64,000 nucleotides of DNA from Armatimonadota bacterium (GTDB taxonomy: Bacteria; Armatimonadota; Fimbriimonadia; Fimbriimonadales; GBS-DC), in contig JBBIML010000010.1 of NCBI GenBank assembly GCA_037444405.1, forward strand, positions 64,001-128,000. Reading direction: 5' to 3'. Position numbers: made by a program. Positions 24,001 to 27,000 of this stretch are shown piece after piece (positions within the stretch are counted from its first letter, which is position 1; each line of letters starts with the position of its first letter).

Positions 24001-27000
24001 GGTCGGTGATGTAGAGGTAGCCCTGCGCATCAAGATAGCCGATATCGCCTGTGTGGAACCAGCCGTCGGGGTCGATCACGGCAGCGGTCGCTTCCGGCTT
24101 TTTGTAGTAGCCCTTCATGATGTTCGGACCGCGCGCCAGAATCTCGCCGTCTTCGGCGATGCGAATCTCCACGCCGGGGATGGGCTTGCCCACACTGCCG
24201 AATCGGGGTGCATGAGGCGGGTTCACGGTCAGCACGGGGCTGGTCTCGGTCAGTCCATAGCCTTCCAAAATGAGGATGCCGAAGGCGTGGAAGAATTCAG
24301 CGATCTCTCTGGGCAGTGCGGCGCCGCCCGAGATGAACAGACGCAGGCGTCCGCCCGTGCGCGCCCGAATCTTCTCGCCCACCAGCCGATCCAGAACGGC
24401 ATGCAGCAGGCGGGTGGGGAAGGGGCACGGTCGCCCCTCGCGCCAGCAGCGGGAGACCACCTTGCCCACTGAATGCGCCTGCCAGAACAGCCGCTGTTTC
24501 AGGGGCGTCTGCTCCCGAACAGAGTTGAGAATGCGGTCGCGCACCGATTCAAAGAAGCGCGGCACGCCCAGCATCAGTGTGGGGCGCACTTGCAGCATAT
24601 CGGCAGCCAGCGTGAACAGGCTCTCGGCATAGGCAATCGTCAGCCCCGCATAGATGGGCAGAAAGTGCCCGCAACACCGCTCGAACACATGGCTCAACGG
24701 CAAAAATGAGAGCAGAATATCGTTCTGGTTCCACTCGATGACCTCCAGGCACGCCTCAATATTGGAGATGAAGTTGCGATGGGTCAGCATCGCGCCTTTC
24801 GGCTCGCCGGTGGTGCCCGAAGTGTAGATAAGGGTTGCCACCTCGTCGGGTTCGATGCTGCAGGCGATGCGTTGAAACTGCGATTCGGTCAGCTCGCCGG
24901 GCAGCTGGAGCAGTTCCTCGAAGGTGGTGGCAGTGCCTGTTTCATCGGGCTGGATGCTGATGAGCTTGAGCGTCAGCCCCGTCTCTTCGAGCGCCTCGCG
25001 CGCTTTGCGCAGCTGGCGTTTATCGCTGACCAGCATCGCGACAGGTTCGGCATCGCGCAGGATATCAGCCACCTGCTGGGCGGTCAGTGTGGGGTAGATG
25101 GGCACGGTGAGCGCGCCTAAACACAGGTTCGCCCAGTCGGTGATTGCCCATTCGGGTCCATTTTCGGCGAGGATCGCCACGCGGTCGCCCGCGCGCACCT
25201 CCAGCGCGTGCAAGCCACGCGCGCAGGCGAACACGCGCCGATAGAGTTCCCGATAGGTAATGGGGTGATATTCGCGGTCGCGCTTGACCAGCAGGGCAGG
25301 TTTCTCGGCGTGCTGCTCCACACTGCGCAGAAACGCCTTCGGCAGGGTGTCCACCATTATCGATCGCACCTCCAGTTGCTATTTCTGTGCGCAATCGCAT
25401 TCTCCTGCCTGAATCCGCCCGATAAAACCGCGCTGGCGCAACAGCCAGTCGGGTCAGATGTTTTGCAAGGGCGAGGCGGCTCGTCCTTCCATCCTGTGAT
25501 GCCCCACCCATCGGGTATACTTCTGGGGCGCGTGGTGGACTGCCGCGCGACATCGTACCGTGCCCGACGCGCTGGGGTGCCCTGCGCGGGCGTCAGGCGC
25601 CGCAGGCAGGAGCGGGATGCTCCTGATCTACAAAGGGTGGAAAGCGCGGATGACGGCACGGGTGGAAACTAACCCAGAGGAGGTCGTGGAAACCGATGGC
25701 AACCCTAACAATGCGGGAACTTCTGGAAGCAGGGGTTCACTTCGGGCATCAGACCCGCAAGTGGCACCCCAACATGAAGCGCTTCATCTACGGCGCACGC
25801 AGCGGAATCTACATCATCGACCTGCACAAGACGGTCGAGATGTTCAATCAAGCGCAGCAGGCGATCAAGCAGATCGTGAACGAGGGCGGGCATGTGCTGT
25901 TCGTGGGCACGAAGAAGCAGGCGCGCGATGCCATCAAGGAAGCCGCCCTGCGCTGCCGCCAGTACTATGTCAACTACCGCTGGCTGGGCGGCATGCTCAC
26001 CAACTACCGCACCATCCAACAGCGCGTCCGCCGCCTGAAAGAGCTGGAACGCATGATCCAGGAAGGCGAGCTGGAGCGCATCCCCAAAAAGGAAGCCGCC
26101 AAACTGCGCAAAGAGTACGAAAAGCTGGAGCGCAACCTCGAGGGCATCAAAGATATGCCCGGACTGCCCGCCGCGCTCTTTATCGTCGACCTCAAAGAGG
26201 AGCATACCGCCGTTGCCGAAGCCAATCGGCTGGGTATCACCACCGTCGCGATTGTCGACACCAACTGCGACCCCGACGAGGTGGACTACCCCATCCCGGG
26301 CAACGACGACGCCATTCGGGCGATTCGGCTGATTGCCGGACGCATCGCCGATGCCATCATCGAGGAGAAGCAGCTCGAATGGCAGGGCGCCGAAGTGCTG
26401 CCCACCGAAATCCCCGAAGTGCAGGAAGAGGCACCGCTCTCGCCGGAACAGGTCGCCGAGTACGGCAAAATGTTCGGCGAAGAGATTGAGGTTGCTACCA
26501 CCGCATCAGAACCCGCGCCATCCCCCTCCGACGAGGAGATTATGGGCAAAGAGTGGGAGCTGATGCGCCGACACCGACTGGAAGAACTGGAGGAGGACTA
26601 CTGATGAGCATCACACCGCAGATGATTAAGGAACTGCGCGACGAAACGGGCGCAGGGTTCATGGACTGCAAACAGGCACTGGAGCAGGCGGGCGGCGACA
26701 TGGATAAAGCCCGCCTCATCCTGCGCGAAAAAGGTGCGATTATCGCCACCAAACGCGCCAGCAAAGAGGTCAATCAGGGCGTGATTGCTGGCAAGGTGAC
26801 CGACGACCGACGCACCGGCGCCCTGATCGACCTGCGCTGCGAGACCGACTTCGTGGCACGCAACGAGGAGTTCCAGGCGCTCGCCAGCGAACTGCTCGAG
26901 GGGGTGCTTGCCTTCGGGCAGGAGGGGCAACGGGACACTTTGCTCCAGCAACCTGCACCGAGCGATCCCTCCCTCACCCTCGAAAAGCGCATCGAGCTGG

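Follow-up and report, generated by a model that had tools for sequence, protein, structure and literature searches.

The region directly upstream of rpsB in the window (the whole stretch of 64,000 nucleotides that was analyzed) carries a conserved RNA, and this locus raises the question of whether this RNA is a leader class of its own, as the survey's finding implied, or a form of a leader that is already known. The known family, widely distributed in bacteria and including the leaders of E. coli and Bacillus, is the rpsB motif, or S2-interacting RNA (Meyer 2009, BMC Genomics, PMC2704228; Fu 2013, NAR, PMC3616713), which has two Rfam entries, RF01815 (rpsB) and RF00127 (t44, the E. coli copy). 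The S2-dependent repression of the E. coli rpsB-tsf operator was shown experimentally (Aseev 2008, as reported in Fu 2013, PMC3616713, and in a 2024 review), and deletion of the GGU loop in the E. coli leader abolishes regulation (Fu 2013, PMC3616713); S2 binding with repression of rpsB-tsf is known for E. coli only. Our analysis leads us to conclude, with high confidence, that the RNA located 5′ of rpsB (25550-25683) is the rpsB-tsf operator and a diverged member of this S2-interacting family. Since it has the architecture and the signature letters of the published rpsB motif (Meyer 2009; Fu 2013), the Armatimonadota leader is not a new class but extends the known family to a further phylum, one that the main text of Fu 2013 (PMC3616713) does not mention.

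The features of the locus are given in Table 1. The genome has a single copy of the leader (25550-25682 in the model search, rpsB starting with the ATG at 25696). Within the interval 25525-25695 that had been delimited initially, the conserved motif was recovered, but the first 25 nt (25525-25549) correspond to a genus-specific 5′ hairpin and do not belong to the motif. In the family alignment, only the four loci of the window's genus have this hairpin, which single-sequence folding also shows as paired; the leader of the sister family f16 has an analogous one. The promoter was not detected by a consensus promoter scan of the leader region, nor was any terminator by a terminator scan; the −10-like box is proposed from conservation, GGTA[TC]ACT occupying an equivalent position in all 26 family loci, and transcription probably starts near 25528. 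The GGAGG of the Shine-Dalgarno sequence of rpsB is also kept in the family alignment.

Table 1. Features of the rpsB leader and of its surroundings, in window coordinates.
Feature	Position	Strand	Remarks
−10-like promoter box TATACT	25516..25521	+	inside the conserved GGGTATACT (25513-25521)
Genus-specific 5′ hairpin	25529..25549	+	at the putative transcript start; outside the conserved motif
5′ flank CGUA	25554..25557	+	counterpart of the CRCA signature; faces GUG 25662-25664 in a short closing helix with a bulged A
P1, 5′ strand CCGUGCC	25558..25564	+	pairs with 25655-25661, checked base by base
Internal loop, short strand CGA	25565..25567	+	N-G-A, kink-turn-like; between P1 and P2
P2, 5′ strand CGCGCU	25568..25573	+	pairs with 25643-25648
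Junction GGGGU	25574..25578	+	25575-25578, pseudoknot 5′ strand
P3, closed by G.U	25579..25638	+	25579-25583 with 25634-25638; rests on the alignment
P2, 3′ strand AGCGCG	25643..25648	+	pairs with 25568-25573, checked in the window
Internal loop, long strand GAUGAC	25649..25654	+	three variable nt, G-A, N; kink-turn-like
P1, 3′ strand GGCACGG	25655..25661	+	pairs with 25558-25564
GUGG, G-N-G-G signature	25662..25665	+	GAGG in most relatives and in E. coli
AACCC	25671..25675	+	ACCC 25672-25675, pseudoknot 3′ strand, partner of 25575-25578
Shine-Dalgarno GAGGAGG	25677..25683	+	one base after the pseudoknot strand and 12 nt before the start codon; read from the sequence
rpsB (ribosomal protein S2, 302 aa)	25696..26604	+	from the ORF list; S2 relatives in 149 of 151 genomes of the phylum
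tsf		+	directly 3′ of rpsB; start codon ATG at 26604 overlapping the rpsB stop TGA (TGATG)

The leader had been described as three stacked helices, and the same helices are predicted independently by RNAalifold from a plain MAFFT alignment of the 26 family loci. This alignment is unfitted, whereas alignments A3, A4 and A6 were fitted to the models, and it reproduced the earlier pair counts exactly: the 20 pairs are 97.5% paired (31.0-46.9% in slid controls), 14 of them show double changes and none of 500 shuffles scores as high. In these 26 sequences, P1 (seven pairs) is 100% paired and P2 (five pairs) 99.2% paired, with changes on both sides in six and three pairs, respectively, and in five of the six pairs of P3. 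Together, P1 and P2 amount to 12-13 pairs with strong covariation, as expected for the long P1 of the rpsB motif; in family f16, P2 reaches 9 bp and is longer than in the window. Among 57 leaders from 18 families, the helices are 94.9% paired (41-55% in slid controls) and double changes affect 18 of 18 pairs, including 7 of 7 in P1, in an alignment that was fitted to the model. The variable insertion noticed earlier is the hairpin of the third helix, whose insertion measures only a few nt in some genera and over 70 nt in others, with 50 nt in the window's genus (25584-25633). Single-sequence folding does not recover P3 of the window and, since the fold of the window leader is not stabler than those of shuffles (z = −1.0; 31 of 200 shuffles fold as well), the structural evidence is comparative only.

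All relatives found are located directly 5′ of rpsB, in keeping with the rpsB motif, which occupies the 5′ UTR of rpsB (or tsf), and the Armatimonadota leader contains the elements of this motif: (i) the CRCA 5′ flank, (ii) the long stem, here interrupted, (iii) the GGU junction, kept in 40 of 40 leaders examined and located 5′ of a P3 of variable length closed by G.U, and (iv) a tail made of G-A-G-G, 2-6 nt and AACC (GAGG-N-AACC), which is pseudoknotted to the junction. The consensus line of Meyer 2009 (PMC2704228, additional file 4), CRCAC ... GGU ... YRYG-GAGG-nn-nAACC, in which junction and tail form a pseudoknot, coincides with the consensus of the Armatimonadota leader. G-N-G-G or G-A-N-G follows P1 in 55 of the 57 leaders, the G-N-G-G signature agreeing with the consensus of the Meyer 2009 alignment and with Rfam t44, and the closure of P1 by CRCA ... 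G-A-G-G that is typical of the motif is found as well, flank and tail co-occurring in combinations such as CACA/GAGG, CGCA/GAGG, CGUA/GUGG and CGUA/GCGG in 55 of the 57 leaders. The second variable stem is absent, as has been reported for the rpsB motifs of Firmicutes, Cyanobacteria and most Gammaproteobacteria. Unlike the known motif, the leader of the window's genus adds the 50-nt insertion in P3 and the 5′ hairpin.

The survey's finding also included a small hairpin beside the Shine-Dalgarno sequence. This hairpin consists of two near-invariant G-C pairs without covariation (one is invariant and the other shows a one-sided change in a single sequence), and it was replaced by a pseudoknot: its 3′ arm, ACCC, beside the Shine-Dalgarno sequence, makes more sense as the strand that pairs with the GGGU junction. 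The core of this pseudoknot, GGU:ACC, which links the junction to the AACC tail as in the rpsB motif, where it comprises 3-5 pairs, is found in 39 of 40 leaders; a fourth pair is standard in 32 of these 40 and mismatched in eight, and a fifth is standard in 23 of 40 leaders and in 9 of the 26 loci of the window's family. The pseudoknot of the window has four pairs, which are invariant; compensated variants include AAAGGU:ACCUUU, CUGGU:ACCAG, GUGGU:ACCAC, CGUGU:ACACG and UUUGGGU:ACCCAAA. Permuted controls scored as high in 29 of 5000 cases in one test and in 9 of 5000 in the other, for sequences that are related and imperfectly anchored. It should also be emphasized that the automated anchoring misplaced several sequences (e.g. 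L010, L015, L044 and L113) and that its figures therefore understate the pairing of the pseudoknot.

A kink-turn consists of a three-nucleotide bulge followed by G-A on the same strand, facing a G-A on the other strand by a Watson-Crick stem; in three dimensions it is sharply bent, with sheared G.A pairs. The internal loop that separates P1 from P2 has this sequence pattern, N-G-A before P2 and NNN-G-A-N after P2 being found in 39 of the 40 leaders aligned to the model, and N-G-A together with a 6-nt opposite strand in 45 of 57 leaders. Its bulge positions vary (GAU, GAA, GUA, GCU, GCA, AGU, GGC, GUG, GAC, GUU) and its G-A is kept. This loop interrupts the stem in Armatimonadota, unlike in E. 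coli, whose leader lacks it, but it is present in the leaders of Bacillus and, as we read it, in the B. subtilis row of the Meyer 2009 alignment. No paper linking a kink-turn to the rpsB leader was found in the searched literature, and this kink-turn-like loop, judged from its sequence pattern and common to Armatimonadota and Bacillota, may be undescribed. The L10(L12)4 (rplJ) leader is also a widely distributed ribosomal-protein leader, with a binding site built on a kink-turn (Fu 2013, PMC3616713), but it concerns another gene and another protein, and its kink-turn mimics the 23S rRNA site. Mimicry of 16S rRNA by the rpsB leader was also considered and rejected: the leader and the organism's own 16S share four 8-mers and one 9-mer, which is about the chance level by a rough estimate and thus gives no support to rRNA mimicry.

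What this RNA does can be proposed from E. coli. The leader folds into a long stem split by the internal loop into P1 and P2, the GGGU junction and the variable P3 hairpin; after closure of the stem come G-N-G-G, a spacer and the AACC(C) tail, whose ACCC pairs with GGGU as a pseudoknot. The most likely mode of action, taken over from E. coli, is that free S2, when it exceeds the 30S subunits, would bind this fold and repress the translation of rpsB, and repression would extend to tsf via the overlapping stop and start codons. The earlier interpretation as an autoregulatory ribosomal leader is supported, and more strongly than had been apparent, by the isostructure with the E. coli S2 operator and by reciprocal detection. 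In the window's family, the pseudoknot strand ends one base from the Shine-Dalgarno sequence and a stabilized fold would therefore hinder 30S binding directly. For E. coli, however, the 2024 review places the ribosome binding site outside the operator and states that S2 requires S1; this occlusion step is therefore an extrapolation. Pseudoknots stabilized by a protein near the ribosome binding site are also found in the E. coli S15 and S4 operators, which act by ribosome entrapment (Fu 2013, PMC3616713), but these overlap the start codon or the coding region, are confined to Gammaproteobacteria and have no likeness in sequence or architecture to the Armatimonadota leader. A more precise scenario, which we put forward tentatively and consider rather doubtful as a whole, combines a true kink-turn between P1 and P2, in the form common to Armatimonadota and Bacillota, with the pseudoknot adjoining the Shine-Dalgarno sequence: S2 would recognize the bent fold and block the 30S subunit directly. 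If true, this mechanism would be simpler and more testable than that of E. coli, with its need for S1 and its free ribosome binding site. The 2024 review describes how S2 represses in E. coli as still unclear, and the loop resembling a kink-turn, together with the pseudoknot that adjoins the Shine-Dalgarno sequence, offers a concrete handle on this mechanism.

Because S2 is proposed as the ligand by analogy with E. coli, where it needs S1 as a companion (2024 review), and the internal loop fits a pattern that other proteins recognize, the structured 5′ UTR could have another role, either in mRNA stability or processing or as an operator for S1, EF-Ts, a kink-turn-binding protein or a small molecule. 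This is improbable: every genome in which the element was detected has it linked to rpsB, the homologous leader of E. coli responds to S2, no L7Ae-family kink-turn binder was found by a PF01248 search of the 98.9%-complete genome, and no terminator-like site follows the leader.

The relationship with the known leaders was evaluated with covariance searches in both directions. The previous statement that the leader has no Rfam match holds for the window, whose sole matches are mir-1909 (16.8 bits) and H19_3 (23.6 bits, other strand), t44 and rpsB giving none at E ≤ 10 in 161-nt searches of the window or of a short copy from the same family. It does not hold for family f16, whose leader, an R1 match at 52.1 bits, is matched below the cut-offs by t44 over its full length (31.1 bits, E 3.8e-5) and by rpsB (24.2 bits, E 0.0038) and carries GGAGGCAUAACC exactly as E. 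coli does. Armatimonadota copies all score below both Rfam gathering cut-offs (44 bits for t44 and 40 for rpsB), the highest score of any Rfam model on them being 33.9 bits (t44). However, both models also fail on the leaders of Bacillota (28.8 bits at best) and pass their own cut-off in at most one of 14 control genomes (E. coli only), and failure at the cut-off therefore measures the narrowness of the models. In the other direction, R2, built from this phylum only and iteratively from the matches of R1 (itself built from the window's family only), detects the annotated E. coli t44/rpsB leader (24.6 bits, E 1.8e-5; next best 9.1 bits) with the helices in register. Since R1 gives E. coli just 9.2 bits (E 0.15), the link between the window's family and E. 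coli runs through intermediates and R2. At E ≤ 0.01, R2 also matches 35 of 40 and 28 of 40 rpsB upstream regions (63/80), mostly from Bacillota, with up to 52.8 bits for Bacillus spp.; as these high-scoring leaders share the internal loop, this form of the leader is not phylum-specific.

These comparisons bear on whether the Armatimonadota leader could be an independent, convergent class of S2 leader special to this phylum, with only general features in common with the motif of E. coli and Pelagibacter. Such convergence would be consistent with the lack of a t44 or rpsB match to the window, with the N-G-A / NNN-G-A-N loop that is absent from E. coli, and with the remark in Fu 2013 (PMC3616713) that scattered distributions might reflect multiple inventions. 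It is nevertheless very unlikely, given that the element order and the signature letters are the same (CRCA, GGU, a P3 closed by G.U, GAGG-N-AACC), that the f16 leader has GGAGGCAUAACC in common with E. coli, that the models detect each other's members and that R2 scores leaders of Bacillota, which have the internal loop in common, up to 53 bits. A signal that merely reflects G+C richness or a conserved promoter, without any RNA structure, would fit the unremarkable single-sequence fold but can practically be dismissed in view of the compensatory changes in 14 of 20 pairs of an unfitted alignment, the low pairing of the slid controls and the persistence of the structure in leaders of other phyla, whose G+C content spans 35-70%. 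The leader is therefore best regarded as the rpsB motif, widespread in the phylum and in Bacillota and of the same family as the E. coli S2 leader, its apparent novelty reflecting narrow Rfam models. For ribosomal leaders, an absent Rfam match should not be taken as novelty; outside Proteobacteria, this one escapes annotation by the narrow t44 and rpsB models, and a seed including Bacillota and Armatimonadota would close the gap.

Within the phylum, the conservation upstream of rpsB across the window's family was confirmed, 26 of 26 loci (from 25 of 29 genomes) being aligned. A search with R1 of 150 other genomes of the phylum yielded 13 additional matches at E < 1e-4 and one at E 0.028. As had been noted for matches in other families, all of them lie directly 5′ of rpsB, as does the source genome's own (14 at E < 1e-4 in all). 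The restriction to four families was an artefact of the search filters, which had been suspected of hiding other families: with the filters off, searches of the stretches upstream of rpsB revealed the leader in 83 of 146 other-family genomes and 21 of 38 other families, the remaining 63 genomes and 17 families, including f11, f19, f21, f25, f26 and f33, giving no match at the thresholds used. Genomes whose S2 match was partial (G097, G114) or absent (G039, G160) were excluded from this survey, and a 42-nt partial R1 match (G124, 20 bits) was not counted as positive. In the filter-off search of 130 upstream stretches, 70 of 74 matches are on the gene strand and end 3-43 nt before the start codon; the four misplaced ones score at most 13.5 bits. 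One of the three widely distributed ribosomal-protein leaders thus serves Armatimonadota too, in at least 22 of 39 sampled families, an extension whose significance is modest only. The best t44 matches genome-wide coincide with R1 matches in six genomes and revealed two more families.

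The rpsB-tsf leader is a real feature: its fold is conserved, covarying and able to form a pseudoknot, always precedes rpsB and is akin to the S2 operator of E. coli. Of the 29 genomes of the window's family, 25 yielded S2, for 26 loci in all; these were aligned with MAFFT over the interval between the -10-like box and the start codon. On this alignment RNAalifold, which was given no structure, recovered the three stacked helices of the survey's finding and a hairpin of two pairs, 20 pairs in total. The pair counts of the survey were reproduced exactly: 97.5% of the cells are paired (31.0-46.9% after sliding the 3′ partners), 14 pairs show double changes and none of 500 shuffles reaches any of five measures. 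Double changes affect six of the seven pairs of P1, three of the five of P2 and five of the six of P3. The small hairpin previously put forward as a fourth "helix" comes down to two G-C pairs devoid of covariation. Folded singly, the leader of the window shows no exceptional stability (z = -1.0), so that the case for structure is comparative. In the window, where the pairing of the listed elements was verified base by base, the consensus fold (-56.8 kcal/mol) is 3.4 kcal/mol costlier than the minimum-energy fold (-60.2 kcal/mol), tertiary contacts being uncounted. The fold is present in a single copy in this genome.

Elements of the rpsB leader in the window
Element	Position	Strand
5′ flank CGUA	25554-25557	+
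P1	25558-25564 with 25655-25661	+
Internal loop, short strand CGA	25565-25567	+
Internal loop, long strand GAUGAC	25649-25654	+
P2	25568-25573 with 25643-25648	+
Junction GGGGU	25574-25578	+
P3, carrying a 50-nt insertion	25579-25583 with 25634-25638	+
GUGG	25662-25665	+
AACCC	25671-25675	+
Shine-Dalgarno GAGGAGG	25677-25683	+
rpsB start codon ATG	25696	+

In the window, the pseudoknot joins 25575-25578 to 25672-25675, and a single base separates it from the Shine-Dalgarno sequence. Its GGU:ACC core occurs in 39 of 40 leaders; a fourth pair is standard in 32 of the 40, among them every locus of the window's family (26), and a fifth in 23. Compensated variants were found in other Armatimonadota families: AAAGGU:ACCUUU (f23), CUGGU:ACCAG (f20), GUGGU:ACCAC (f17), UUUGGGU:ACCCAAA (f18) and, with a compensated change within the core itself, CGUGU:ACACG (f30). 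In the leaders, the longest junction-tail helix has on average 4.18 pairs, compared to 3.89 ± 0.11 with permuted tails (29 of 5000 reach 4.18), and an anchored test found both outer pairs in 16 of 45 leaders compared to 8.3 ± 2.3 after shuffling (9 of 5000 reach 16); given the imperfect anchoring and the relatedness of the sequences, neither figure should be read as a probability. In three f30 loci (L083, L102 and L106), GUGU:ACAC replaces GGGU:ACCC, the core being otherwise invariant.

The survey had reported the leader from four families, and our whole-genome scan of the phylum with strict filters gave four or five. Because of this strictness, rpsB was located in 149 of 151 genomes and stretches of 164-360 bases around its start, taken for 130 of them, were searched with filters off. 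R1, a model of the window's family only, gave 74 matches at E ≤ 1; 70 are on the gene's strand and end 3-43 nt before the start, and the four misplaced ones score at most 13.5 bits. A second model, R2, derived from R1's matches, was built on 57 Armatimonadota leaders. Since both models contain the Shine-Dalgarno sequence, weak matches are well placed partly by construction, and therefore only stronger ones were counted (R1 ≥ 17 bits; R2 ≥ 18.4 bits, E ≤ 0.01). At these thresholds, the leader is present in 83 of 146 genomes and 21 of 38 families other than the window's, so that four families was an underestimate. In the alignment of the 57 leaders, which was fitted to the model, 94.9% of the cells are paired (41-55% when slid) and all 18 pairs show double changes. 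Neither model matched the rpsB upstream stretches of f11, f19, f21 and f25 (four genomes each), f26 (six) and f33 (nine), which are among the families devoid of matches (stretches within L072-L201); there, either loss of the leader or divergence past R1 and R2 accounts for this.

The survey's finding also implied novelty, and this does not hold. The passages of Meyer et al. 2009 (PMC2704228) concerning the rpsB motif describe a long P1 and a junction cap with two variable, sometimes missing stems, in Alpha- and Gammaproteobacteria, some other Proteobacteria, Cyanobacteria and Firmicutes. Their alignment has the consensus CRCAC ... GGU ... YRYG-GAGG-nn-nAACC. The window RNA has all elements of this motif in identical order. 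According to the relevant passages of Fu et al. 2013 (PMC3616713), the S2-interacting RNA is one of three ribosomal leaders spanning many phyla, is equated with E. coli t44 RNA (RF00127) and loses S2 control when the GGU loop is deleted. The t44 consensus likewise shows three stacked helices, GGGU, a G.U-closed P3 and GAGGCuUAAC. An Rfam search of the window gave no family match to the leader, and t44 found nothing above its cut-off in 151 genomes of the phylum. Its best sub-threshold matches coincide with R1 matches in six genomes and indicate two further families; eight of 12 such places are directly 5′ of rpsB. In family f16, where R1 scores 35-52 bits, t44 matches one R1-found locus at the same spot over its full length (31.1 bits, E 3.8e-5; cut-off 44), as does Rfam rpsB, RF01815 (24.2 bits, E 0.0038; cut-off 40). 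Reciprocally, R1 matches the annotated t44/rpsB leader best in the rpsB region of E. coli K-12, weakly (9.2 bits, E 0.15) though in register, and R2 gives 24.6 bits there (E 1.8e-5; runner-up 9.1 bits). Furthermore, 80 rpsB loci were gathered by S2 protein alignment: two from Chthonomonadales, the others mostly from Bacillota, with Ktedonobacteraceae, Nitrospirota, Acidobacteriota and Eisenbacteria. With filters off and E ≤ 0.01, R2 matched 35 of 40 and 28 of 40 of them, always on the gene's strand and ending just upstream of rpsB, with up to 52.8 bits in Bacillus species. On 14 Bacillota loci, t44 gave only sub-threshold matches (28.8 and 23.4 bits), and Rfam's own cut-off was passed in at most one of 14 control genomes. 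The missing Rfam match is therefore a sign of narrow models, and the window leader is a diverged member of the known, widespread S2 leader family. As far as the literature searched shows, this leader is newly traced in Armatimonadota; Fu et al. 2013 might already list copies in their Figure 2 or supplements.

Between P1 and P2 lies an internal loop with a 5′ strand N-G-A and a 3′ strand NNN-G-A-N. In 39 of 40 leaders (45 of 57 in the larger set), both G-A are conserved and the bulge of three letters is freely variable. This is the kink-turn sequence pattern, P2 being the canonical and P1 the non-canonical stem. Unlike the window leader, that of E. coli is devoid of the long loop strand, whereas Bacillus leaders have the loop as in Armatimonadota. 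Since it is also present in 13 of 32 rows from outside the phylum and, as read here, in the B. subtilis row of the Meyer alignment (PMC2704228), it is not specific to Armatimonadota. A full-text literature search for rpsB and kink-turn found no publication linking the two. Despite this loop, a PF01248 search of the genome (98.9% complete) detected no L7Ae-family protein.

The kinship with the E. coli S2 operator supports the survey's reading of an rpsB-tsf autoregulatory leader, through which S2 would probably act. Free S2 would bind the fold and lower rpsB translation, and repression would pass to tsf via the overlapping stop and start codons. The stabilised fold should hinder 30S binding, because the pseudoknot strand adjoins the Shine-Dalgarno sequence in the window's family. 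This step is the least secure, since the relevant part of a 2024 review (PMC10931766) places the E. coli ribosome binding site outside the operator, has S1 assisting S2 and calls the mechanism unclear.

The rpsB gene (25696-26604, + strand, 302 aa) has a TGA stop (26602-26604) overlapping the tsf ATG (26604-26606) as TGATG (26602-26606), pointing to a translational coupling between EF-Ts and S2. The sequence GGAGGAGG is found nearby, at 26590-26597. A minus-strand match to H19_3, a mammalian lncRNA model without base pairs (25636-25749, 23.6 bits), was taken as chance. The divergent upstream gene starts at 25369, leaving an intergenic region of 326 nt. The box GGGTATACT (25513-25521) has the same relative position in all 26 family loci; its simplest interpretation is a -10 element, from which the transcript would start near 25528. 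Since a generic promoter scan found no promoter, this assignment stays putative. A stable hairpin at 25529-25549 follows the putative start and is restricted, within the family, to the window's genus; a comparable hairpin follows the TGGTAAACT box of f16 loci (L028-L034), upstream of the motif. Both may be 5′-end stabilisers. In one genus of the family (L010, L011, L013, L014, L020-L022 and L026), a second conserved box, ATTATACC, precedes the -10-like box by 20-45 nt and could be a divergent promoter or operator.
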